From positions 1-38,648 of the IMG/VR virus record IMGVR_UViG_3300026311_000005: DNA of 38,648 nt, one strand, 5' to 3'. Positions within the stretch are counted from its first letter, which is position 1; every line of letters starts with the position of its first letter. Both the position numbers and the translations under genes were made by a program. The stretch is from a virus. The notes beneath the pieces were generated by a model. It saw only the letters and a list, made by a program, of their open reading frames with translations, was not told the DNA's origin and ran no database searches. Positions 857 to 38,648 of the stretch are shown piece by piece.

Positions 857-2038
857 TCACGGTCTATATCTGTCGCGCCATTCGATGACATACTCGTCCG
901 TCCCCGCAATGCTCAGTTCCGCCGACTCTCCGGCCGGGACTATCGGGATCTCGGATATGGCGATGTGTCTCCACTGCTCGATTTTCAGGCTCGGTATGGA
1001 GATAGATGTCAGATCGCCGTCGGCGGCAATTCGGATATATGCGTTTTCCATTCCCTCGGCTTGAGGGACATAGATCATCATCTCCCTGCCAGTCGTCCAC
1101 CGCGGGCTCTGCGAATCGATCACGGTCTGCCACGAGGCTTCACCGTCGGTCGAAACGTCGATCGATGCTATGCCCTCCCCTGTCAGAGTGGGCCGGATGG
1201 TCAGCAGCAGACCGCCCTTGCGGATCGGGAAAACTCCGGGGAGATCATATATTGCATATCCGGACGTTGTGATCACAAGTTCCCCGTCGGATACTGATGC
1301 ATTCGATGACGATGACTTGTCGGCCGCGAACTTATCCCCGTCATCGAACATATCCTCATACAGTTGATATAGCTGACCGAATCTGTCCATTGTCAGCTCC
1401 TCATCGGACATGAGCGATGGAGCGACGAGGACGGACGCATCACCGATCGTGATTGTGACATCGGCCCCACCGACGACCGATAGCGAAAACAGGAACGCGT
1501 CCAGCGTCCCGTCATTCTGAATGTACGTAGGCGATGGGAATGGGAATAACATCTCCTCACCATACTCTGCCAGGAGGGCTTGGCCTGCCTCTGACAGCAG
1601 CGGAGCATACCCGAACGTCGGGGCCGCGGCATAGAGCTCCGCAGCCTCGGCCCAGAACTTAGCGGTCTTCCGGACGATCCCCGCCCCCCCGGCCGCTGGC
1701 TCGATCTCGGTATCTCCCACCGAGCCGTGGACGACCGCGAACCGATCAGCCCGGCCGAAATAGAGGCGGTCCGTCTCCTGATCCCCGGCGAGGTCATCGA
1801 TGAGAGCGGTGATCTCGTCCTCATCGCCTATCTGGTCGGCGAGGTCCGGCCGGAATATGAGGCCCGCCACCAGGGTGAGGGGATCGCGGCCCTCCTGCCA
1901 GACGACGGCCCGGTTGCCCCCGATGATGGGTGAGGTCTTCGCCCTGCGGCCCGCGCCTTTGGCCCGCCGGGGCCCCCACTCAACATAGGAGGAGATGTCG
2001 GTATCTCCGATCTGGATTTTTCGCGATATTGAAGTCAT
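857..2038 (-). CDS. Tail-associated protein (393 aa), function unknown
   Basis: ORF track; 4-nt overlap with the upstream tail gene; its stop is followed 9 nt later by the tail fibre ATG, with a GAGG motif spanning the stop. Confidence 0.4.
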   Translation of the reverse strand: MTSISRKIQIGDTDISSYVEWGPRRAKGAGRRAKTSPIIGGNRAVVWQEGRDPLTLVAGLIFRPDLADQIGDEDEITALIDDLAGDQETDRLYFGRADRFAVVHGSVGDTEIEPAAGGAGIVRKTAKFWAEAAELYAAAPTFGYAPLLSEAGQALLAEYGEEMLFPFPSPTYIQNDGTLDAFLFSLSVVGGADVTITIGDASVLVAPSLMSDEELTMDRFGQLYQLYEDMFDDGDKFAADKSSSSNASVSDGELVITTSGYAIYDLPGVFPIRKGGLLLTIRPTLTGEGIASIDVSTDGEASWQTVIDSQSPRWTTGREMMIYVPQAEGMENAYIRIAADGDLTSISIPSLKIEQWRHIAISEIPIVPAGESAELSIAGTDEYVIEWRDRYRP

Positions 2039-4611
2039 GGTTTCGTGATCCCTCTGACTGTGCCAGTTATATCCGAATTTTGCGATATCGCATATCTTCG
2101 AATCATCAACACCGATATCGTTTCGAGATTACCATCCAATCTGCAAAATTGTGATATATCTAAATCGCTAATAATATTCCCATATATTGGCTTCGCTGTA
2201 AGATACGCGCATCGCGCTCCGTTAACGGTGACGATGCAGTCCACCGCCGCATCTGGATTTTCTTGTGAAGTCGTCCCGGACGAAGATAACGAAAACAATA
2301 CCAACCCGGCATCGGTCCCAAAATCATCGGGCGTGAAATTCATCTCAAATTCATATCCTGAAATATATATATGACCACTCGCTGTTCCGATAGTGTTGTG
2401 TCCTGACAACATCAATCCATCTTCCCATGACGTGATGCACGATACCGACGTGGTGATTAATCCGCTGACATCCTCCCAATCTTTCCCCCAATTAGTCGAT
2501 CGGTATAATTCTCCGGCACTAGACGATGCGACCACAAATCCATTGCGGAACGCGTGAAGCTTTTGGATTGTCGTGGATGGGCTGTCATAGACTTCCGTCC
2601 AAGTTGTCCCGTAATCTGTCGATCTAAAAATCTTTCCACCGCGACTAGATCCTGCTAGTATTATACCAGACGTCCACCCTGCCAACGAATATATGAACAA
2701 TTCGGATGAATCGTAGACTTCCGTCCACGTCGCTCCATAATCTGTCGACCTGAAAATCTTTCCACTTGGGTACGTCCCTGCAAATCCGTGCCCCGTGGGG
2801 ATTGCACATGTCCCGAATATATATTGCTCGCTAGTATTATACACTTCGGCCCAAGTTTCTCCGTAATCCGTTGACCGCAAAATACGGCCATTTGCTGATG
2901 TCCCGGCAATTGCGTATCCATTTTCCCATGTAGACATTGCCCATATCTGCGATCCAGATGAATCGTAGACTTCCGTCCACGTCGCTCCATAATCTGTAGA
3001 CCTGAAAATCTTTCCGTTTGGGGAGCTTCCCGCAATTGCGTATCCATTTTCCCATGTAGCTATTGAAGTAATATTATGTTCAGGTGTTACATTTTTAGCT
3101 ACTGCCCAGGTTACCCCTCGATCCGTAGATCGAAAAATCTTCCCGCCCGCGCCTGAGCCACCGTCACCGGTCCCGGCTATTGCAATATCGTCGTTCTGAA
3201 ACACCCCAATTGATGCAATAGTTTTTTCTCCGGTACTATATATGTGTGCGAACATATTTGACTCAGAACTATATGAGGCCTCCCCCACCAACCTGTCACG
3301 ATACGCCTCTATCGCTCCGGTTTCGGATCGTTCCAAAAACGCCGTTAGCAGCGACAGATCTGGCGCTCCGACGACGGCCACCTCCCCTGCGATCGTCTCT
3401 CGAATAGATCGAATCTGAGCCGCGAATTTCTCACCGCCCTCGAGATCCAATTCGATCCAGTCTCCTACATCCATACCGCCTCGATACAGATCGATCTCTA
3501 CCGGCGCGTGTTGATGGATCGCATCGTAAAAGTCATCAGTTGCCTGGTCCAGGTGGCCCCACGGTGGAAGCCTGGCACCGGGGAGCTGGTAGGTAGTCTC
3601 AAGCCACGCCTGACCCGGACACAGCAGCTCGCCACGAGCGTACCGCACGCCCTCTATATTTTCCGCGCCGGCGCCCATCCCGACAACGCAAGAATACGGG
3701 ATATATCGAGGTGGCGAGATCTTCTGTAGACTGAAATCATCGCCGATGTGCAGCGACGCGTGGGGGGCCGACTCCGACCCCCTCGCCTTCGGAGTCGCCG
3801 AAATGTCCAGATAGACGTAATCCTCCTCTCTCCGAAAGACGACGTACTGCCCGGTCTCCCCGACGAGATCCCGGATCAAGCCCCAGATCTCGGTCTCGCC
3901 AACCTCGTACGGCGCTCCGACCTCGGAGTCGGTCGCCACGGTGCCTAGCCGGACGTGATTTTCTGCCCACCCGTCGGCGGCGATCACATCATAGATATCC
4001 CCCGTTCCGGCCCCTCGGACATAGAGGTTATCCCCCGAGATCGCATAGCGATAGGTCCCTCCTGCGATCGAGGATAGGGTGGACTCGGCGAGCTTGTGGC
4101 CGCCGTAATAGATATCGTGACCGGTGACGAGCGGTCCCCATCCCTCCAGAGTTCCCACGCCATCCGAATCCCATGACACGATCCCGGTGTCCTGACCGTC
4201 GCAGATCTTCGACCTGCTGAGCCAGAGGAGGCCCATGCAGTACTGAGTCGCCCCGGCCCCCTGTGGCGGGGCGTCGGAGGAGAAGATGTCGGATAGGGTG
4301 AGCCCGACGCCGCCGGGATAAATGATCTCTGGCGCGTATCGGCACTGGAGAAGGGCTTCGGCGGCGATGCAATCATACCGCCTCTGCCCTCCCACGGCGC
4401 TGTACTCGATAGAGACGACTGAGCCGATGAAGAGCACGTCCCCGGAATCCGAAACGGCCCGGACCCTCGCCCCCATTCGGATATGATCGATCTCCGAAGC
4501 GATGGACAGAGAATCGCCTAGATCGTTCTCCAGGGAGCGGAAGAGTTCCGGGTCGGAACCGTCGATGACGAACTCGGACGACTGTCCAGGATTCTGAAAA
4601 TATAGCATCAT
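2035..4611 (-). CDS. Large tail protein with a predicted Asp-box (BNR) beta-propeller domain, sialidase-like
   Basis: Seven repeats of the Asp-box motif S-x-D-x-G-x-T-W (RSTDYGATWTEV and variants); matching near-identical 60-bp DNA repeats around 2700-3020; N-terminal region paralogous to 4608..6803; start placed at the ATG at 4611 that overlaps the upstream stop (ORF track start 4668). Confidence 0.6.
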   Translation of the reverse strand: MMLYFQNPGQSSEFVIDGSDPELFRSLENDLGDSLSIASEIDHIRMGARVRAVSDSGDVLFIGSVVSIEYSAVGGQRRYDCIAAEALLQCRYAPEIIYPGGVGLTLSDIFSSDAPPQGAGATQYCMGLLWLSRSKICDGQDTGIVSWDSDGVGTLEGWGPLVTGHDIYYGGHKLAESTLSSIAGGTYRYAISGDNLYVRGAGTGDIYDVIAADGWAENHVRLGTVATDSEVGAPYEVGETEIWGLIRDLVGETGQYVVFRREEDYVYLDISATPKARGSESAPHASLHIGDDFSLQKISPPRYIPYSCVVGMGAGAENIEGVRYARGELLCPGQAWLETTYQLPGARLPPWGHLDQATDDFYDAIHQHAPVEIDLYRGGMDVGDWIELDLEGGEKFAAQIRSIRETIAGEVAVVGAPDLSLLTAFLERSETGAIEAYRDRLVGEASYSSESNMFAHIYSTGEKTIASIGVFQNDDIAIAGTGDGGSGAGGKIFRSTDRGVTWAVAKNVTPEHNITSIATWENGYAIAGSSPNGKIFRSTDYGATWTEVYDSSGSQIWAMSTWENGYAIAGTSANGRILRSTDYGETWAEVYNTSEQYIFGTCAIPTGHGFAGTYPSGKIFRSTDYGATWTEVYDSSELFIYSLAGWTSGIILAGSSRGGKIFRSTDYGTTWTEVYDSPSTTIQKLHAFRNGFVVASSSAGELYRSTNWGKDWEDVSGLITTSVSCITSWEDGLMLSGHNTIGTASGHIYISGYEFEMNFTPDDFGTDAGLVLFSLSSSGTTSQENPDAAVDCIVTVNGARCAYLTAKPIYGNIISDLDISQFCRLDGNLETISVLMIRRYAISQNSDITGTVRGITKP

Positions 4612-6803
4612 CGTAACTCCACCTGGAGACGTCTGCATCGTGTCACGCCGTCGCCCCTGCCACTCCAAATCTGGCAGTAGAGGTATATTCCTGCCTGGAG
4701 ATCATCAAGCTCCTGCTGAGTCCATGTTGCGCCGGAATAAGGATTAGTAATCCATTCATCCTCGAAGCGTTGATAGACACCGATAAGAGATCGTTGCGCC
4801 CCCCAATATACCGTACTGTGTGTTTTTATAAACGCTCTCGAATACCCGACATCCATACCACGTTCTAATATAGCATCATGGACAAGAACTACCTTGAAAT
4901 CGAATGATGGCTTAGCTTCGTTGCTGAGGTTCCAAAGGGCCGTGCCGGATGCTTCTGCCCCGCCAATGCGACCAGCGTCCGCCAAGATATAAATATCCCC
5001 TGTCAGCGTTGATGAGATCTTAGATCCGAGCGTTAGTGTCTTTATCGCGCTCTGCCCATATCTCCCGATGCCCCGGACGGTGATCGTGTACCCGAGCGTC
5101 TCCGAAAGGGTCCCCGTGGGGTCGGTGACGGCGATCTCCAGCGTCTCCTCGGTTCCATCGAGCGCGCACCACTCAGTGATGTCCAGCCCCTCGAAGATCG
5201 GATCTTTTCCCCAAGGCTGATGGGGGATGATCGCGATGACCTGGCCTGCTGGATAGGTGGTGTTGGTGATGGTGAGGGTCCACGTGACAGCGAGGTCAGA
5301 CTCGTCCGAGTCTCCGGGTGTCGTAGCCCTGAGATCGACCAGGATCTCGGCAGTGTCCCGGTCACTGGATGCCGTCGGAGTCCAGGATATAGAGCCCGTA
5401 GTCCCCGGACCGATGTTGTCGGTGGCCTCCTGATTCCCGAACGCCTGCCCCGCCCGCATGGCGGCGATTGCAGCCGACGCCTGTTTTTCGAGATACGCAT
5501 TTCTGGGGCTGGCATACTTTCCCCCGAGCCGGATCTGTCGGAGGGGCGACAGATCGCGGGATATCTCCGATATCTGAGCGGTGGCGATCTCCGAAGGCGA
5601 GATCTCTACATCGAGCCAGTCACCGGGCAGGAAGTAGTCGATCGCTGTTTCCAGGGAGATAAAATCCGCCTCGGAGACATCGCCCCATTCTGCATCAGCG
5701 ATATCCTCCAGTCTGCCTTTCGGGGACAGTCTCCCCTCCGAGACGTCTAACGTCTGCTCTATCCAGGGCCCTCTTTTCGAGAGATCCGCCTCTGTGTAAA
5801 TCACCCTAGACACCCCTGCCCCAGCCCCACGACAGATCAAGGCAGTCGGAGGGATATCTCTTGGCGCAGTTCGCTTGAGGCTGATATAATCGCCCGGCCC
5901 GATGGAGAACGCGCCGCCCGACGACGAGCCCCGGACCCACGGATTTATCGACCCGTCTAGGTACGTCAAATCTCCGACGTGCCGAAGTCGAAGATAGATC
6001 CCCATATCGAAAAGAAAATCGTGAATAATCTGCCAATAATTGTCATCGTCGCCGGAGACGTCCAGAGCCGCGAGGAGGTAGTCGCCTGATCTGTCCAGGT
6101 TGCCGAGCCGGAGCCCGGTATCCTTGAAGTTGTCGATGCAAACCGGCCCGAAATCACCGACACCTGCGCCATAGACATAAAGATCGTTATCTCGATAAAT
6201 CCTGTACGTTCCGCCGCTGATATCTCCGAGGGAGTCTACCTCAGTGCAGAGATGGCCGCCTACGTAGACGTCTTTCCCCGCCGTCCGAGGATGTGACCCC
6301 CAGTTGGCCCACTTCCAGACTCCAGCCGTTCGAGAGTCCGCTGTTAGCGGGAAGTAACTATGAGCCATCCAGATTAGGCCTGGCACGTACTGATCCGTTC
6401 CGGCTGATTGGCTGGGAGGATCGGACGACAGGACTTGGGCCAGCGTAAGCGCGGAATAGCCCGAGACGATGGCCGGCGCTCCCCATCGCATCAGGCCCCA
6501 CGGCACCCGGCTCTTCAAAATTTGAGGGATGGATATGCACTTGATTTTCAGGCATCCCTCAGTCTTCCCCGTGGCGGCGTTGTAGAATGTTGCCCCTTCG
6601 CGAGAGGCCGCTGCACCACGATAAATCGTGTGGCCGTTCTCGACCATCTTGAGCCACGACCGATCCCGAACGGGTGCCCGGTACGATACCTTGAACTCCA
6701 GATCCTCCCCCTTGTCGAAGTCTCGGTATTGAGTATGGCGGAGATCCATGATATCGATCTGATGATAGGTCCCAGTAGCGTCGGCGACGTAGACCTCTTG
6801 CAT
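4608..6803 (-). CDS. Large tail protein (731 aa), paralogous in its N-terminal half to 2035..4611
   Basis: ORF track; shared block GGTYR.Y.D..LYV.GAG.GD with the neighbouring gene; immediately downstream of the tape measure gene. Confidence 0.5.
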   Translation of the reverse strand: MQEVYVADATGTYHQIDIMDLRHTQYRDFDKGEDLEFKVSYRAPVRDRSWLKMVENGHTIYRGAAASREGATFYNAATGKTEGCLKIKCISIPQILKSRVPWGLMRWGAPAIVSGYSALTLAQVLSSDPPSQSAGTDQYVPGLIWMAHSYFPLTADSRTAGVWKWANWGSHPRTAGKDVYVGGHLCTEVDSLGDISGGTYRIYRDNDLYVYGAGVGDFGPVCIDNFKDTGLRLGNLDRSGDYLLAALDVSGDDDNYWQIIHDFLFDMGIYLRLRHVGDLTYLDGSINPWVRGSSSGGAFSIGPGDYISLKRTAPRDIPPTALICRGAGAGVSRVIYTEADLSKRGPWIEQTLDVSEGRLSPKGRLEDIADAEWGDVSEADFISLETAIDYFLPGDWLDVEISPSEIATAQISEISRDLSPLRQIRLGGKYASPRNAYLEKQASAAIAAMRAGQAFGNQEATDNIGPGTTGSISWTPTASSDRDTAEILVDLRATTPGDSDESDLAVTWTLTITNTTYPAGQVIAIIPHQPWGKDPIFEGLDITEWCALDGTEETLEIAVTDPTGTLSETLGYTITVRGIGRYGQSAIKTLTLGSKISSTLTGDIYILADAGRIGGAEASGTALWNLSNEAKPSFDFKVVLVHDAILERGMDVGYSRAFIKTHSTVYWGAQRSLIGVYQRFEDEWITNPYSGATWTQQELDDLQAGIYLYCQIWSGRGDGVTRCRRLQVELR

Positions 6804-15634: not shown

Positions 15635-16401
15635 TTCTTCGCCACCAGAATCTCAGTGCACCGGCATCTCGGATGCAGAGTCGGCCCGTCGCCGCCGCCC
15701 TCAAATTGCCCATTGGGGAGTTCCGCCCTTTTCCCGGACATGGGACGGCATAGGGGGCATAGCCTTTCGTCCGGGGTGACGAGCCATTCGCGCTCCCAGT
15801 CGTCAGGGCTCAGGATGCCCCGCTTTACCGCCCCCCGGTTGGCTTCTCGATATCCCTCGTTGGCCGCCTTGTGGCCCTCAGTGAGGGCTATTGTCCCGGC
15901 TCGCCACTTGAGGAGCTTCTGACGGTATCGGTCCACCGCCAGCTTGCGGGCCGATTCGTCCATGTCCAGCTTCTCAAGACCGGCCTCGAAGTTTCGGACG
16001 GCCTGAACGTGCTGGGGGATGAGTCCGACGTTCTGCTTGATGATCTTGATTTGTTCATTCGGCGAAAGTCCCTCCTGGAAACCTCGAAGGATCGTCTCTC
16101 GGATCCCGGCCTTCGTCCCGGCGTCGATGTACTTGATCTCGTCGCCGCAGAACTTTTCCAGCCAGGCGATTGCCTCTGGGGATTTGAGGTCGAAAGAGAC
16201 GCCCATCCCCACAAGCTTCCCGATCTCTTCGAGCTGAGCCTCGCCGCCCTCCAGGAAGGCTGCCTCGATGAAAGGAGAGGGGTCGAATTTGGTCGCTGGG
16301 ATATTCTTTCGGCCGTCGATCTCTACCTCCCTCTGCCACGCCAGGAAGGCCTCGGTGATCGTCCTCGCCCACTTGTCGCCGACGTCCTGGGTAGTGGTCA
16401 T
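15631..16401 (-). CDS. Minor head (head morphogenesis) protein, Mu F / SPP1 gp7 family
   Basis: C-terminal signature ...ALTEGH...CPLCRPMSGK...HPRCRCTE matching the Phage_Mu_F domain. Confidence 0.7.
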   Translation of the reverse strand: MTTTQDVGDKWARTITEAFLAWQREVEIDGRKNIPATKFDPSPFIEAAFLEGGEAQLEEIGKLVGMGVSFDLKSPEAIAWLEKFCGDEIKYIDAGTKAGIRETILRGFQEGLSPNEQIKIIKQNVGLIPQHVQAVRNFEAGLEKLDMDESARKLAVDRYRQKLLKWRAGTIALTEGHKAANEGYREANRGAVKRGILSPDDWEREWLVTPDERLCPLCRPMSGKRAELPNGQFEGGGDGPTLHPRCRCTEILVAKK

Positions 16402-16901
16402 ACTATCTCAACAGATCCAGCTATCCAGCCCTGGAGAAGTTGTCTCGCCTTCCTCGATTGGAGGACGCCCGCACCCGCCCCCGGAGCATAAGTTTCCGAC
16501 GTCGTCGAATAGGTAGCGTGGGTGACGCCCTGCTGCTGGAGGGACCGCCTCACCTTCTGGTCTGGAGCGGCGACGCCTTCTAGTATCGCCAAGGCTTCGA
16601 GACAGCAGGCCGCTTCGACTTCGGCCGGAACCTCTGAATAGTCGGGGAGGGTTGAACTCTGGTAATATATTTCTGAGTCATCTGGACGAGTTCGGGCGGC
16701 TATATCAGGCCGCCGGGGGAACTCGCGGGCCTGGTCCGGATCGTACTTCCATCCTTTCAGCATCAGACAGTCGATGGAATCGGACGCCTCTTCCAGCGCC
16801 GCCTCCTTCTGCGCACTCGTCGCGGCGGTCCAGGCCGCTATATCGACGACGTGGGCCGTGAGCCAAACGTCGGCATCTGTTGCCGAAATGTAGGAAGTCA
16901 T
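16398..16901 (-). CDS. Putative head-tail connector protein (gp6-like)
   Basis: N-terminal pattern ISATDADVWLTAHVVDIAAW... typical of this family; position. Confidence 0.4.
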   Translation of the reverse strand: MTSYISATDADVWLTAHVVDIAAWTAATSAQKEAALEEASDSIDCLMLKGWKYDPDQAREFPRRPDIAARTRPDDSEIYYQSSTLPDYSEVPAEVEAACCLEALAILEGVAAPDQKVRRSLQQQGVTHATYSTTSETYAPGAGAGVLQSRKARQLLQGWIAGSVEIV

Positions 16902-16906
16902 CCAAA

Positions 16907-17053
16907 TCAGTCCTCAGTCTTCTTCTTTCGTACTCTCTTCACCTGCTCCGGCTCCGGGTCGGTGAGCTCCGCCGAAAGAAGGATCTCGGCAAGCCTGGTG
17001 TCGATGTCGGCCAGATCGTAATCTCCATAGGCCCAGGTAGATTCATATGCCAT
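16907..17053 (-). CDS. Small acidic protein (about 48 aa)
   Basis: Manual translation MAYESTWAYGDYDLADIDTRL...; ATG overlaps the upstream stop (TGATG). Confidence 0.25.
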   Translation of the reverse strand: MAYESTWAYGDYDLADIDTRLAEILLSAELTDPEPEQVKRVRKKKTED

Positions 17054-17328
17054 CAGTAGTCCCCCCGCAGGTCGTCCTCTTTGGCCTCGACTAGATCGAG
17101 CCGCTTCGCCTCAAGTGCCTGCTTGCTATCGAAACCCAGCCGCGCATACATCGGCATCGGGTTCTTCACCTTCTTGGTCTCCGGGACCTCACCGGTCTTC
17201 TCGTCCATCTCGGTGACGATCTCCACCTCGGAGTCGTCCGGAACTCCCGCCAACAGCACCACCATAGCCTCCGGGCAATCCCGTTCCAGCGCCACTCTGT
17301 CGTCCGGTGACAGGTGGGGCCAATGCAC
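17053..17328 (-). CDS. Hypothetical protein (91 aa)
   Basis: ORF track; position in a chain of overlapping genes. Confidence 0.3.
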   Translation of the reverse strand: MHWPHLSPDDRVALERDCPEAMVVLLAGVPDDSEVEIVTEMDEKTGEVPETKKVKNPMPMYARLGFDSKQALEAKRLDLVEAKEDDLRGDY

Positions 17329-17404
17329 GCCACGCCGCCTGAGTTCCGCCGCTGCCTGAGTCGAATCCGTAATACCGCCTCCTATGAGTCACCGTAATTT
17401 TTTT

Positions 17405-18484
17405 CTATACAGGCTCCGCGACCGCCCGAGCGCCGGCATCCGAATTCGCACCCCAGCGAGCGTGAGCCGCAACCCGACACCGCGAGCCGCAATACGAGCC
17501 GTAACCCCAATTGCCGCCCGCACGCAGCTTTACGTCTCCGGATGTACCCTGGCGTTGTATCGACCCCCGTGAGCCTGGGAGATCGAACCAAGACCACGCA
17601 GGATCTACCGTCGGATCTGTGAGTCCATCTATCCGGAAGCTCTGGTCAGCTAACCACTGGTACACGACCCCGCAACAGTCGATACATCCGCAGTTGGAGA
17701 TCATGCTCCGGCCCGCAGTGTCGAGATGGTGGCCGGTCGTGCCTGGATCTGCGGACCCGGCGATGTTCGTCTCCTCGTTCGATCCAGCTGCGAATAGTTG
17801 GAACTCTCGATCTGTCGGCAGCCTGCATCCGACAGCGCCGAGATCGTCCACGAAATCCATCCAGTCGCGAGTATCGGATATCGTGCCGCCGTTCACGCTG
17901 GCGGTGTTGACGCCCGTGCCCGATACCAGGTATATCCCGACCCAGATGTTAGCCTCCTCGCACCAAATCATTCCCTCCGGGGCGGCGATGCCCCTTGGCC
18001 GGTGCATCAGATCCCAGATCGATCCGCTCCGGTTGTCGCCGCAGTGGATGTCTCCGATCGCGTGATTCTTGAACGGGTGGCCCACTGGCAGATTCACCAT
18101 CGTCGCCGGGGTGCAGTGGAACCCCCCGATCTTTCGGGCGGTCGCGGCCGCATAACCGCTAGGAGTCGTAGAGTTGGCTGAAATCTTGATCGTAGGTGCC
18201 CGGCCGGTCGCTGGAACGCACGAGTACAGATAGAAATTTTTGCCGGCTCGGTTCGCCGGCGTCCTGTAATCGGTCCCGACGACGGTATCCCAGGTCGCTT
18301 CCAGCGCCAGATCTAGCTCGATCTGGTCGTCGAGGATGTACCCTTTCCCGCCGACGTTGACCTCAATCCCGTCAGCGGGCGACACTAGAACGTCCCGGTC
18401 GCCTGATTTCATCGACCACTTGTCGTCGATCCGCCGGACGTAGTGACCGGGTTTCGCGGCTAGATCGGGCTGGACGTAGATCAT
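17405..18484 (-). CDS. Structural-module protein with a C-terminal formylglycine-generating-enzyme-like (FGE-sulfatase type, C-type lectin fold) domain
   Basis: Motifs CRLPTDREFQLFAAGS (compare RLPTEAEWEYAARGG) and VKLRAGGNWGYGSYCGSRCRVAAHARWG...GAR (compare RGGSW...R.A.R...GFR). Confidence 0.5.
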   Translation of the reverse strand: MIYVQPDLAAKPGHYVRRIDDKWSMKSGDRDVLVSPADGIEVNVGGKGYILDDQIELDLALEATWDTVVGTDYRTPANRAGKNFYLYSCVPATGRAPTIKISANSTTPSGYAAATARKIGGFHCTPATMVNLPVGHPFKNHAIGDIHCGDNRSGSIWDLMHRPRGIAAPEGMIWCEEANIWVGIYLVSGTGVNTASVNGGTISDTRDWMDFVDDLGAVGCRLPTDREFQLFAAGSNEETNIAGSADPGTTGHHLDTAGRSMISNCGCIDCCGVVYQWLADQSFRIDGLTDPTVDPAWSWFDLPGSRGSIQRQGTSGDVKLRAGGNWGYGSYCGSRCRVAAHARWGANSDAGARAVAEPV

Positions 18485-18906
18485 GCTACGTCCTCCACGT
18501 AGTAGCTGACGCCGCCGGTGATCCGATCGGCGGATACAGCGTCTAGCACCAGTGCCTCATTCGTCCCGAGGTTGATCGGGATATTCGGGGACAGCTCAAT
18601 TGCCGAGAACTGTAGCGTCATGATCGTGGTCGATCCTGATTTGACGGCCACTTCGACGTTGGCCAGCGAGGTCAGGACGATCGATGTGATCCGAATACGT
18701 TTTCCGGCTCCTGGTGCTGGGACGATCGTCTGAGCTGACCCGGACGAGAAATCTATCGCAACGTGGCTGAGGGAGGGCGGGTCGATAGAACTGATTTTCC
18801 CGTCATCGTCCACCATGAGGGGGACGAGATCTCCGCCCACTGTCCGGCCATATGCCACCTTCGCACCGATCCGTCCGCCGTATACGATTTCTTCGTCTGC
18901 CATCAT
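18481..18906 (-). CDS. Hypothetical head-module protein (141 aa), possibly a decoration protein
   Basis: ORF track; 4-nt overlap with the downstream gene. Confidence 0.35.
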   Translation of the reverse strand: MMADEEIVYGGRIGAKVAYGRTVGGDLVPLMVDDDGKISSIDPPSLSHVAIDFSSGSAQTIVPAPGAGKRIRITSIVLTSLANVEVAVKSGSTTIMTLQFSAIELSPNIPINLGTNEALVLDAVSADRITGGVSYYVEDVA

Positions 18907-19151: not shown

Positions 19152-19676
19152 TCATCCGCTCGTCTCCAGCACGGCGATGCGGGCGGCGAGCTCATCGAGG
19201 ATCGCTGATATCGACTCGTTCGACGTGACGTTCGTCACCGCCGAGAAGTTCCCAATTTCTCCATATTGTGTGGTCGCGTTGGTCCAGAGATCGAGCACGT
19301 CTCCATCGAGTTCGTTGATCGCTGCGGCGACATCGTTGGCCGTAGTGGTGATATTCGCGATATCTCCGAGATAGTCATAGATGGTGGTAGTGTCCGAAGA
19401 AGCGATCGTTCCGCCGACGCTGAGGTTGCCGCTCAGGTACGCCCCGCCGTCGGAGTATATGTCGCCCACGACATTGACGTCTCCCTCCACGTCCTGGTCT
19501 CCGACGACGGTATGGTTTCCCCCGATATACCCGTCCCCGGATATATTGAGGCCCGCCCCAATGAAGTAGCCGGAGGTCGTGTAGTTGGTGGACCGAGGAT
19601 ACCATGAAGACTGAGAGGCGGCCGCCCCGATCAGGAGGGCCGCCGTTACGATGATTGCGACTAGTTCGCGTTTCAT
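19152..19676 (-). CDS. Secreted or membrane-anchored protein (174 aa), unusually rich in N-x-S/T sequons
   Basis: Signal-like N-terminus MKRELVAIIVTAALLIGAAAS; nine N-x-S/T sequons; GGAGTGAGGAG upstream; immediately after the capsid gene. Confidence 0.45.
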   Translation of the reverse strand: MKRELVAIIVTAALLIGAAASQSSWYPRSTNYTTSGYFIGAGLNISGDGYIGGNHTVVGDQDVEGDVNVVGDIYSDGGAYLSGNLSVGGTIASSDTTTIYDYLGDIANITTTANDVAAAINELDGDVLDLWTNATTQYGEIGNFSAVTNVTSNESISAILDELAARIAVLETSG

Positions 19677-19686
19677 GTCGATCTCC

Positions 19687-20685
19687 TCACTCCGCGGGGG
19701 TGAGAGCTGCGAAGGGGAACCGGGTATCGTCGGTCTCGTTGACGAGGTTCTTCGGGTTCGGCAGAACCCATCCGAGCCGCATGGTGAGCCGGAGAGCTAC
19801 CATATCGTTCTGGAAGAGGTTGTAGACAAGCGCCCCAGCGGCGTCATGGATCGAAGCCTCCGTCGCCACCTTCCAGGTGATGTCCTGGCGGATGCCATAG
19901 ATGGCCTGGTTCCAGTCGCCCACTACCGCGAGGGCGATCGTGTCGTCCCATGCTCCGTTGTTCGGGAAGGTGATGGGGGCCCCGGCGAGCCTGTATCCGG
20001 TCGACTCCTTCATGTCGTTGAGGAAGAGGAACTGGCCGTTTGCGTCCCGAAGACCTCTGAGCCGTCCCATCATGGGGACGCCCCCCATCGCACCGTTGAC
20101 GATGTACCCGTCCTGCTCTACCAGAGAGTAGAGACCGTTGTTGGCTAGAAGGGCGTCAGCTAGATCGGCGAACGTCTCCCCGGACCCCACGTCATCCATG
20201 CTCACAGAGTTGGACTTTGCGATCGCCTGGGTCACGATCCCATCCGGCCAGGAGGCCGGGGCGATCGATCCAGCAGAATTGTAGAGGATCGACTGATCCA
20301 CCAGAACGCCGAGAGCTTCGACGAGACGGGGCTTGGTCATCCCCCACAGGTCGAAGTTCTGGGATGCCATGTCGGAGATCACGCTTTCGGGAACCGGGAC
20401 GATGACGGCTATCTCCTCCATCGTCATGGTGACGCCGGTCCAGTCCATCTTCGTGGTCTTTTTCAGGTTGGCAGCGGCATAGTTGCCCGCCACCTCATCG
20501 ACGAAGTAGGCGTTCGGAAAGCTGTTCAGCATCGGGATCCGCGTCACCTTCGAGGAGACGGGAGGCAGGCCCCTCATCTTCTGGAGGCAGAAGCTCTGAG
20601 TCGGGATGGCTTCGATGATCTGTTTGCTGTACTCAGTCGGCAGGAGTTCCTCCGACCTTCCAATAAAATTATCGTAGTCAGTCAT
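19687..20685 (-). CDS. Major capsid protein, HK97 fold (332 aa)
   Basis: Size, position after portal and scaffold, general resemblance to HK97-family capsid proteins. Confidence 0.65.
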   Translation of the reverse strand: MTDYDNFIGRSEELLPTEYSKQIIEAIPTQSFCLQKMRGLPPVSSKVTRIPMLNSFPNAYFVDEVAGNYAAANLKKTTKMDWTGVTMTMEEIAVIVPVPESVISDMASQNFDLWGMTKPRLVEALGVLVDQSILYNSAGSIAPASWPDGIVTQAIAKSNSVSMDDVGSGETFADLADALLANNGLYSLVEQDGYIVNGAMGGVPMMGRLRGLRDANGQFLFLNDMKESTGYRLAGAPITFPNNGAWDDTIALAVVGDWNQAIYGIRQDITWKVATEASIHDAAGALVYNLFQNDMVALRLTMRLGWVLPNPKNLVNETDDTRFPFAALTPAE

Positions 20686-27696: not shown

Positions 27697-28332
27697 GTGG
27701 CAGCAAAAGCAAAAGCGCCCGCCCAGAGCGGGCCTATAACCCTGAAAAGGATCGAGTTGGAAACGGTTGTCGTCCCGATCGTGGGGACCTCTGAGCTGAT
27801 CGTTCACAAGTGGAGCGATAAAGCCAAGCGCCAGATGCTAGACAAGCAGATGAAACCGGGGACCAGATCAAAGAAGGAAGCAAAAGACCCGGTAGCCGAC
27901 TACGAGGCGTCGAAATATAAGACGCCCGAAGGCAAAGATGCGATGGTGACGACCGCCTTCAAGAAGGCGATGGTTGACGCCCTCCGCTACTTCGACGGTG
28001 TGAGTATGGTCCTGGGAAAGACCGCCTTCTTTGTAGAGGGCGAGTACGTCGAGCTGGAGGGCGAGCCCCGGATGAGAGAAGACATGGTGAGGCTGGACGG
28101 CGGTGGGTCTGCTGACATCCGATACCGGGCCGGGTATCCTGAATGGAAGACGAAGCTCACCATCACCTACGCAAAGGATATCCTCACTATGGAGTCGGTC
28201 CTGTCCCTGGTAGAAGCAGCGGGACAGACCCAGGGCGTTGGCGAATGGAGGCCGTCGTCCAAGAAGACCACCGGTCCCTTCGGTCGGTTCACGATCGACA
28301 CGTCCCGGAAAATTGAGGTGATCACTGCATGA
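27697..28332 (+). CDS. Hypothetical protein (211 aa), first gene of the repeat-flanked plus-strand cassette
   Basis: ORF track; GTG start with GGAG about 11 nt upstream; no recognisable motif. Confidence 0.5.
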   Translation: MAAKAKAPAQSGPITLKRIELETVVVPIVGTSELIVHKWSDKAKRQMLDKQMKPGTRSKKEAKDPVADYEASKYKTPEGKDAMVTTAFKKAMVDALRYFDGVSMVLGKTAFFVEGEYVELEGEPRMREDMVRLDGGGSADIRYRAGYPEWKTKLTITYAKDILTMESVLSLVEAAGQTQGVGEWRPSSKKTTGPFGRFTIDTSRKIEVITA

Positions 28333-28853
28333 CCAAAATGGTATATGCCTGGAGAGAGGGGCGGAGCGCCAGCCCCTACCTTTCCAACGTATCCCCCCAG
28401 GTGGTCGGTGAAGAGCTGGAGAAGGTCCGAGAACAGGGGGGGGGGATGATCTTTCCCCGTGCCGTCATCGATCACGCCCGACCATCCGACTCGCCCCTCC
28501 ATTCATGCTTTGAATGGAACGACACGGAAGCCGCCGAGAAGTTCCGAATCGTCCAGGCGAGGGGGGTCATCAAGTCTGTCGAGATCGTCGAGATCAAAGG
28601 CAAACCACTCCCCTCCCCCATCGTAGCCAACGTCAGCGTGACGCGCCGGGCCGTTGTGCCGGGCGATCCAAGGATCAGGTATTATGAGAGCACTCCTCTC
28701 GCCCTCCAGGACCCGGAGCTTCGGGACCAGGTACTCCAGAAGGCTCTTAGGGAGCTGGAATCCTGGCGGGAACGATACGACGCCTTTACCGAGTTCAGTC
28801 TGGTCTTCGGCTCGATAGAAGCCATCCAGAAAAAGATAAGATCTTCAGCCTGA
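28329..28853 (+). CDS. Hypothetical protein (174 aa), second gene of the cassette
   Basis: ORF track; 4-nt overlap with the upstream gene. Confidence 0.5.
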   Translation: MTKMVYAWREGRSASPYLSNVSPQVVGEELEKVREQGGGMIFPRAVIDHARPSDSPLHSCFEWNDTEAAEKFRIVQARGVIKSVEIVEIKGKPLPSPIVANVSVTRRAVVPGDPRIRYYESTPLALQDPELRDQVLQKALRELESWRERYDAFTEFSLVFGSIEAIQKKIRSSA

Positions 28854-37721: not shown

Positions 37722-38648
37722 CTACATCACCCTCGTCGGTACCCTGACCTCGAACGACTCCACGAGGAAGTCGCTAGTGAGATTATTCGAGCTGGGCGCT
37801 ATCCTCGATATCGCCAGCCTCACCCTTTGACCGGCAGACCAACCAAGGGAGCTGACGGTCGCCGTCCAGGTGTAGATGACGGGCCGGTTCTGGGTGGCGT
37901 TGCAGGCTAGGTCGCCTGAGTCGCTGGCGGTCGAGTAAGCAGTATCGACAGACCCTGCGCCGCTCGACAGGACCAACTGCTTCACCCTGAACTTAACGTT
38001 CTTGCCGGCGGCCGCCGTCTTGGCCCACCCCACGAGGGCGAACGTTATGGTTCCCCCAGTGTTGATGTCGGCCGGCACCACGAAGGCCGGCGCCTGGGCC
38101 GTCTCCTCGGTAGTGTCATCGAATGCAAGCGTAACCACCGCCTGGTTCGTCCCATCCAATAGGTATTCCTCGGGCGAGTTGGCGGCGTCAAGGTTGAATG
38201 CGGTGGGCGGCAGCACGAGGATCCTCGTGCTGTAGAGATACGTCCAGGCCGGATCGTCTGCACCCATCGACAGAACGGAGTACTGGGAGCCTTTGGCGAG
38301 CCTGGCGGCGTCACCGGATCCCCGGTATAGCAGGTCTCCCCGGGTCGTGAGGATCTGGTTCAGAAGGGTCGCCAGGGTGGCCCAGGCCGGATCGTCTGCA
38401 CCCATCGACAGAACGGAGTACTGGGAGCCTTTGGCGAGCCTGGCAGAAGTTCCGTCCGAGCGGTATAAGAGATCTCCCCTTGTGGTCAGGATCGTATCTA
38501 GTATCGCCGCCGGAGTCGAAACCCCTCCGAACAGAGGCCGGTCGTCCCGGTAAATGTAGCTGTTGGAGCCGTCGTCGGCGTCATCGATATGAACCGATCC
38601 CACCCGATGATAGACCAGGCAGATCGGGACGGTATTCGCGACGAGAGC
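37722..38648 (-). CDS. Tail fibre protein, C-terminal portion (38522-38648 duplicates 1-127); contains a tandem 46-aa repeat
   Basis: ORF track 37722..38603 with no stop upstream to the window end; internal repeat ILTTRGDLLYR...ARLAKGSQYSVLSMGADDPAW occurs twice; last large gene of the tail cluster. Confidence 0.6.
   Translation of the reverse strand, partial: ALVANTVPICLVYHRVGSVHIDDADDGSNSYIYRDDRPLFGGVSTPAAILDTILTTRGDLLYRSDGTSARLAKGSQYSVLSMGADDPAWATLATLLNQILTTRGDLLYRGSGDAARLAKGSQYSVLSMGADDPAWTYLYSTRILVLPPTAFNLDAANSPEEYLLDGTNQAVVTLAFDDTTEETAQAPAFVVPADINTGGTITFALVGWAKTAAAGKNVKFRVKQLVLSSGAGSVDTAYSTASDSGDLACNATQNRPVIYTWTATVSSLGWSAGQRVRLAISRIAPSSNNLTSDFLVESFEVRVPTRVM
38522..38648. repeat. Terminal direct repeat, copy 2 (identical to 1-127)
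   Basis: Same comparison as above. Confidence 0.9.

Follow-up and report, generated by a model that had tools for sequence, protein, structure and literature searches.

An Mtd-like variable-protein gene in a viral genome without a diversity-generating retroelement, with traces of a deleted cassette

Mtd-type targets of diversity-generating retroelements (DGRs) are already known from phages of bacteria and from ANMV-1, a putative archaeal virus whose DGR target is AdtA (PMC4372165). Here we describe an Mtd-family variable-protein gene (17405..18484, minus strand) in IMG/VR record IMGVR_UViG_3300026311_000005, a viral DNA whose whole length of 38,648 nucleotides (nt), hereafter the window, was analysed. 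Compared by description, AdtA and the protein of the window are both Mtd-like variable proteins with a C-type-lectin (CLec) domain, encoded by environmental viruses from methane-cycling habitats; ANMV-1 differs in its intact DGR with Avd and in a target that lies beside tail-fibre genes.

The other close point of comparison is phage BPP-1, to whose Mtd the protein is homologous over both the β-sandwich and the CLec domain (27-29% identity). Common to both are a variable repeat (VR) at the extreme C-terminus, variable codons derived from AAY, a conserved G/W/C/R scaffold and a GC-rich VR 3' end, which in relatives of the window is followed by a short hairpin. The differences lie in gene content, the window genome being without a template repeat (TR), reverse transcriptase (RT) or Avd, and in cassette layout, as the DGR cassettes of its relatives have no Avd between VR and TR and carry a conserved open reading frame (ORF) of ~100 amino acids (aa) after the RT. 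They extend to the hairpin, which has an 8-bp stem and a GRNA tetraloop in BPP-1 versus a 5-6 bp stem and an 8-10 nt loop in the relatives, and to the surroundings, i.e., the head/neck block of a siphovirus-like genome as opposed to podovirus tail-fibre genes.

Less commonly documented is a DGR-written VR left orphaned, together with a mapped deletion junction, what looks like a series of decay stages in relatives, and shuffling of VRs among RT-less genomes; a limited search of the literature on DGR components that were lost or orphaned gave no account of such a state. Taken as a whole, we consider it probable that the VR of the window was written by a DGR and was orphaned when the cassette was deleted, in which case the apparent paradox of a DGR-type variable domain without a retroelement would resolve into a documented loss event.

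Mtd homology in a genome without a retroelement

The gene is a 359-aa ORF with an ATG start, located at exactly the coordinates proposed in a first-pass annotation made from the sequence alone; its ATG overlaps the stop of an upstream 141-aa ORF (ATGA), to which it is translationally coupled. Residues 72-130 match PF21916 'Mtd second domain' above the cut-off (Pfam, E 4.7e-13), and the protein also matches PHROG 11262 'tail protein' (E 3.8e-47). The range of identity given above covers mtd of BPP-1, BMP-1 and BIP-1 (tblastn, E 1e-13 to 1e-15), while a phmmer match to Mtd in PDB (1YU3, E 5.9e-14) pairs residues 71-356 with Mtd 96-375. With an AlphaFold2 model of the protein as query (pLDDT 72.7, pTM 0.75), the top five Foldseek matches are all Mtd structures (1YU0-1YU4; E ~1e-16, template-modelling (TM) score 0.58-0.61). 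By sequence comparison, the protein is a true Mtd homologue across both domains, and 585 matches at E<=1e-3 place it in a large metagenomic family.

The domain plan would comprise an N-terminal anchoring region, a β-sandwich of the Mtd type and a CLec domain on which the 38 VR codons would be solvent-exposed. The N-terminal region and β-sandwich occupy ~residues 1-190 (17915..18484, minus strand), with AlphaFold2 pLDDT ~88-94 over residues 11-180 and the PF21916 match; the CLec domain, like formylglycine-generating enzyme (FGE) in fold and containing the VR, covers ~residues 191-359 (17405..17914, minus strand), as delimited by alignment to the CLec domain of Mtd and by a sub-threshold match to PF03781. 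Such a protein would presumably bind a ligand or receptor, with a putative adhesin role. Mtd itself binds a protein, pertactin; glycan binding, raised in the first-pass annotation, is speculation for the homologue described here.

An identical 127-nt direct repeat stands at both genome ends (1-127 and 38522-38648), and independent assemblies of the same genome measure 38,644 and 38,662 nt. This indicates that the window is a complete circular or terminally redundant genome of ~38,521 bp, and the absence of RT and TR from it is therefore meaningful. A DGR-aware TR scan of the whole window, run on both strands and tolerating mismatches only at adenines of the candidate template, gave a best 60-nt alignment with still at least 12 non-adenine mismatches, as against 0 in each of three positive controls (loci L001, L002 and L004; L numbers denote our collection of related loci). 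A generic repeat search of the window likewise found no template repeat. Searching the window by tblastn with three DGR RTs and one Avd from relatives returned only noise (E>0.1), and with the ~100-aa post-RT ORF no match at E<1. Pfam and PHROG scans of the other window ORFs found no RT (RVT), the families identified being terminase, portal, capsid, adaptor, tape measure, a BNR-repeat protein and two DNA methylases; scanning the window for Rfam families and tRNAs returned nothing. The earlier statement that no RT or template repeat is present thus extends to the whole genome, which is without a complete autonomous DGR: RT, TR, hairpin and accessory gene are all lacking. A negative search of this kind does not, however, mean that the gene is not a DGR target.

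The cassette of relatives and the deletion junction

That the gene has no connection to a DGR is contradicted by its C-terminal 38 codons, which by alignment correspond to a VR, and by relatives that keep a cassette at exactly the same position. An RT lies immediately 3' of the Mtd homologue, at 47-63% identity, in vir525 (BK063673.1, Caudoviricetes sp.), L004, L008-L011 and L015, and directly 3' of the gene in L071 also. Proteins of vir525, L004 and L071 belong to the same family (49-85% identity to that of the window) and share its VR scaffold; vir525 and L004 further share with the window the order of small ORF and Mtd-like gene, in their case directly followed by the cassette. The downstream gene (...NPMP.YARLGF...) is common to the window and L071. 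All three differ in having kept the hairpin, TR, RT and post-RT ORF where the window has a deletion junction. A close DGR-positive relative, L071, has 85% aa identity over the C-terminal 210 residues and a complete cassette of VR, hairpin, TR, RT (339 aa, RVT_1) and 100-aa ORF. More widely, a single JGI metagenome scan for templates recovered 76 TR-bearing loci, of which 67 have an Mtd homologue; an RT is present in 64 of the 76 and the post-RT ORF in 58.

Register alignment with the VR/TR of L004, L001 and L071 places the VR equivalent of the window in codons 320-357, 38 codons at the C-terminus (17415..17527, minus strand). Fourteen codons are hypervariable (321, 325, 327, 328, 331, 335, 338, 340, 341, 342, 345, 347, 349 and 350) on a fixed scaffold, VKLxAGGxWxxGSxCGSRCRxAxxxRWxAxSxxGARAVAE, which bears a different sequence in each of more than 30 close homologues drawn from four 90%-identity clusters around the protein. 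Clean VR/TR pairs are present in L001 and L004, and the C-terminus of the window (VKLRAGGNWGYGSYCGSRCRVAAHARWGANSDAGARAVAEPV) aligns codon for codon with the TR of L004 (VKLHAGSNWNNGSNCGSRCRNANNTRWNANSNIGVHAVAD). The closest relatives (L003, L005, L007, L099, L100 and L106; 81-94% identity) are themselves without RT and TR. Among RT-less relatives, 23 of the 41 variable nucleotide columns fall on first or second positions of codons where the L004 TR has adenine; the remaining columns mostly show synonymous third-position differences. Adenine-biased variation at the 3' end, which the first-pass annotation had proposed looking for, is found most directly when the VRs of L005, L006 and L106, none of which has an RT, are set against the TR of L071: the differences number 19, 21 and 21, every one of them within the 27 adenines of the 112 nt and none at the other 85 positions (Fisher p 1.6e-15 to 1e-17). 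Because all of these differences fall on template adenines, we conclude that the VRs of the RT-less clade were written by DGR mutagenesis.

The missing cassette has left a mappable scar. Downstream of the VR of the window, a spacer (17378..17407, minus strand; aligned with L071) holds the stop codon, an A-run, the left hairpin arm GGTGAC and the junction, GGTGAC|TCATAGGAGG, which falls between 17388 and 17387 (context TAGAAAAAAATTACGGTGAC|TCATAGGAGGCGG) and fuses the 3' flank of the VR to the next gene. That gene is a small ORF (17053..17328, minus strand; 70-91 aa, ...NPMPMYARLGF...) identified by ORF calls and by alignment to the 104-aa post-cassette gene of L071 (...NPMPTYARLGF...), its homologue, and its original ATG/ribosome-binding-site region now adjoins the junction. 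Alignment thus indicates that ~1.6 kb is missing from the window, comprising the hairpin right arm, TR, RT and accessory ORF. In L071 the heptamer TCATAGG occurs twice, once immediately behind the post-VR hairpin and once just ahead of the downstream gene. In L107 an intact hairpin is fused to TCATAGGAGG, where the contig ends, and this state is the expected product of recombination between the two heptamers.

Other relatives show this junction or variants of it. L003, L005 and L006 have the same junction as the window, and a variable-gap junction pattern search recovered only contigs of L005 and L006. Loss from the hairpin amounts to 6 nt in L099 and L106 and to 13 nt in the window, L003, L005 and L006; L007 has lost a further 24 nt, stop codon included, and L100 has a different left flank at the junction. 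The hairpin itself (TGACA-N8-10-TGTCA) is present in L071, L004, L103 and L101, the window keeping its left arm GGTGAC only, and folding predicts a hairpin in L071, L004 and L103 and none in the window; z-scores of such short post-VR hairpins alone are not significant, and the argument rests on conservation of the arms. A post-VR hairpin is needed for efficient retrohoming in BPP-1 (PMC3240598). Erosion of the hairpin after RT loss would fit relaxed selection on a DGR-specific cis element, and the apparent series within the clade from intact cassette through primary deletion to eroded hairpin supports the hairpin being such an element.

We thus envisage an ancestor with a cassette of hairpin, TR, RT and ~100-aa accessory ORF directly downstream of the gene, whose VR would have been written by mutagenic retrohoming from an adenine-rich template with AAY at each variable codon. 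In the lineage of the window, ~1.6 kb would have been deleted, probably between the short TCATAGG direct repeats, with loss of TR, RT and accessory ORF, and the hairpin would have eroded afterwards. The Mtd-like protein would still be expressed as an adhesin of fixed specificity, which the genome itself could no longer diversify.

The cassettes of the relatives present features of their own. At the 3' end of the RT gene, either overlapping it or just behind it, lies the conserved ~100-aa ORF (L071:1942-2244, L004:2763-3080, L022:1672-2001). It co-occurs with the RT in 54 of the 58 TR-bearing loci that have it and has no Pfam match, in a DGR family whose cassettes are without Avd between VR and TR. 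Four classes of DGR accessory protein have been described, namely Avd, HRDC, MSL and CH1 (PMC5758913); the ORF fits none of them by size and position and is a candidate new DGR accessory protein. In L071, the genome's own VR (560-640) and TR (692-808) show five non-adenine mismatches, four of them in codons 342-344, which read TGCGACAGG against TATCGCTGG and replace an otherwise invariant R-W pair; this VR copy may have been damaged or altered by a non-DGR event. L101 carries an 80%-identical Mtd-like gene (L101:352-1620) with an intact post-VR hairpin and neither TR nor RT, preceded by a gene on the opposite strand and followed by helicase and D5-type primase genes. The cassette is thus found in widely differing genomic surroundings, and its loss from L101 was apparently independent.

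Stability of the variable repeat and alternative readings of the locus

VRs of the RT-less clade occur on two synonymous scaffolds: 'type B' (L005, L006 and L106), which fits the L071 TR, and 'type A', common to the window, L003, L007 and L099. The VRs of the window and L003 differ at 20 sites, 17 of them adenine positions of the L071 TR. For the window, the exact protein with the same VR recurs in six or more contigs, which stem from several samples and assembly pipelines, so this allele looks stable, or frozen.

Several observations nonetheless weigh against a DGR-written VR that was simply left behind and frozen. AlphaFold2 confidence is low in the C-terminal CLec domain, and the fold call there therefore rests mainly on alignment to Mtd. 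No template for type A VRs was found among the 72 of 76 templates from the JGI metagenome scan that could be scored in register, the other four lying at contig ends; even the best candidate departs from a type A VR at 13 or more non-adenine positions, and from that of the window at 15, and the adenine test is thus direct only for type B VRs. When an all-adenine template was inferred from the variable codons, a search of IMG/VR for it recovered only L022, a distant low-GC relative with its own cassette; a template on the type A scaffold would include GGCGGC AAT TGG AAT AAC GGCTCG AAT TGCGGCTCG CAG TGTCGG AAT GCG. Moreover, different VRs are found in RT-less genomes with one and the same junction, each of the two scaffold types occurs with both main junction variants, and L005 and L106, although 99.6% identical over 1.3 kb (5 differences in ~1,300 positions upstream), have 16 differences at VR adenine sites. 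Change of VR alleles has thus either followed the deletion or been independent of it, and a simply frozen VR becomes less convincing for the clade; such shuffling requires independent deletions, recombination or retrohoming in trans.

Continued diversification in trans strikes us as rather unlikely. A co-infecting DGR-positive relative or a host-borne DGR would supply RT and TR-RNA, and the cDNA would home via the retained GC-rich 3' end of the VR. Components of DGRs, namely Avd, TR and RT, do function in trans experimentally (PMC5758913), and hairpin-independent homing takes place in BPP-1 at low efficiency (PMC3240598), against which must be set the destroyed hairpin of the window and the identity of its VR allele among the contigs mentioned above. 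The template of DGR-positive L071 is a perfect match for the type B VRs found in RT-less genomes; for type A, the one JGI metagenome scan gave no template. Both L005 and L006 differ from L106 at 15-16 sites that are all template adenines, yet the L005/L106 pair also shows an excess of differences immediately before the TR-covered block (3 in 75 nt versus 2 in ~1,225 nt farther upstream), where homing cannot change the sequence. In L099 a type A VR block follows a pre-VR segment of type B, a combination that would be compatible with homing in trans; the surrounding DNA is, however, strongly mosaic, with blocks at ~0% and ~20% divergence. It is this enrichment outside the TR-covered block, together with the mosaic structure, that favours recombination, and short-patch homologous recombination probably shuffles VR alleles among the RT-less relatives. 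Were trans-homing to operate, diversification would be a shared good and genomes without the 1.6-kb engine would be cheaters; we are doubtful that such RT-less 'cheater' phages, with a tip rewritten in trans by co-infecting DGR-positive relatives, are what the clade represents. With an orphaned VR after cassette deletion as the preferred reading, the clade could serve to study how frequently phages give up hypermutation and by which route, recombination or trans-homing, orphaned VRs are refreshed.

A static, FGE-like lectin-fold protein of the head, serving as a fibre or decoration without any link to a DGR, is highly unlikely. This was the proposal of the first-pass annotation, and both motifs on which it drew are present, as CRLPTDREFQLFAAGSNEE at residues 220-238 and LRAGGNWGYGSYCGSRCRVAAHARWGANS at residues 320-348. 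Its fold assignment stands in part, a C-type-lectin/FGE-like fold being typical of DGR targets; the family, however, is Mtd, beyond mere likeness to FGE. The match of residues 218-355 to the FGE-sulfatase profile (FGE/SUMF1 family, PF03781; 15.9 bits, E 0.011) falls below the gathering score of 23.3, and structure prediction places Mtd nearest, FGE enzymes following as the next-best structural neighbours with marginal scores (Foldseek E 0.016-0.1); at a TM-score of ~0.2 there is no reliable alignment of the protein to an FGE, and the two share only a broad fold class. With no sign of enzyme function in addition, the enzyme reading was rejected, and the gene is better annotated as 'Mtd-like variable (receptor-binding) protein' than as an FGE or sulfatase-modifying enzyme. 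A static protein would suit a genome without RT or TR, a gene placed, as had been noted, between those for the major head protein (19687-20685) and the head-tail adaptor (16398-16901), and an upstream jelly-roll ORF that weakly resembles a capsid cement protein. It does not suit the Mtd homology, the codon-for-codon agreement of the C-terminus with active VRs, or the cassette at the exact site in relatives with a visible deletion junction in the window. What is rejected is the lack of a DGR connection alone, not the location on the head.

An assembly artefact, in which the TR-RT segment was dropped between near-identical VR and TR repeats, is extremely unlikely and was rejected: such repeats do break assemblies, and L103 ends inside its own TR, but a VR-TR collapse would leave behind an RT, of which none is found anywhere in the genome, and the junction joins unique sequences rather than repeat copies, exists in several distinct variants and recurs across pipelines and samples, in independent assemblies (JGI, ENA k141 and Logan) and in L003, L005 and L006.

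Gene neighbourhood, virion location and host

In the window, the major head protein gene is followed by three small ORFs, the Mtd-like gene region and the head-tail adaptor gene (Ad1), alongside which come genes for a MuF-like head morphogenesis protein and a connector protein. L100 has a similar arrangement with a different capsid type, and several relatives likewise have the gene beside that of the capsid; its neighbours in L071 and L101 are non-structural genes. The 141-aa ORF directly upstream (18481..18906, minus strand), whose stop overlaps the Mtd-like start, is predicted to be a jelly roll (AlphaFold2 pLDDT 82), and an ORF of 108-140 aa, alike by size and position, directly precedes the gene in relatives. 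Its Foldseek match to the KHP30/40 trimeric capsid cement protein is weak (TM-score 0.5, E 1e-3), and it resembles tail-fibre domains equally, such generic jelly-roll matches giving no decision between head and tail. The only family annotation bearing on location is the 'tail protein' of PHROG 11262. For the Mtd-like protein, a role as a head- or neck-attached auxiliary adhesin is plausible.

As to the host, vir525 is listed with Methanosarcinales and P0048 has the source name 'Methanothrix sp.', both hinting at methanogens. L104 (CAZHAO010000172.1), a contig of a Methanotrichaceae metagenome-assembled genome, has a capsid gene with 81% protein and 77% DNA identity to that of the window and no Mtd-like gene in the 2.7 kb downstream of it; L104 hints only weakly at the host, and it shows that viruses of this group can do without the Mtd module. 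Against a methanogen host, the nearest cultured capsids (~40%) come from phages of Gram-positive bacteria.

Elsewhere in the genome, a second candidate tail receptor-binding protein, possibly acquired horizontally, is the 877-aa BNR/Asp-box (Sortilin-Vps10-like) repeat protein (2035-4668, minus strand), encoded just beyond a 731-aa ORF and the gene for the tape measure, where the block of tail genes reaches its distal end; its gene contains 126-nt tandem repeats (2469-3147) in a low-GC patch (GC 0.46 versus ~0.59 genome-wide). Directly after the major capsid gene, a 174-aa ORF (19152-19676, minus strand) with an N-terminal hydrophobic segment has unusually many N-x-S/T sequons and no family match, and could encode a glycosylated surface or decoration protein; richness in sequons is reminiscent of archaeal surface proteins. 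A 293-aa ORF (37722-38603) with a weak PHROG 'tail fiber protein' match contains an exact 63-nt duplication (38244-38306 and 38382-38444, spaced 138 nt). Two adjacent, overlapping genes encode N6/N4 DNA methyltransferases (PF01555; 29171-30529 and 30526-32259, minus strand). Finally, there are two families of imperfect direct repeats of ~110-120 nt, one (26824-26931/27298-27405) beside a low-GC patch at 26-27 kb and the other (27538-27668/28848-29017) flanking two plus-strand ORFs (27697-28853; PHROGs of unknown function), which may mark an origin/iteron region or a mobile module.

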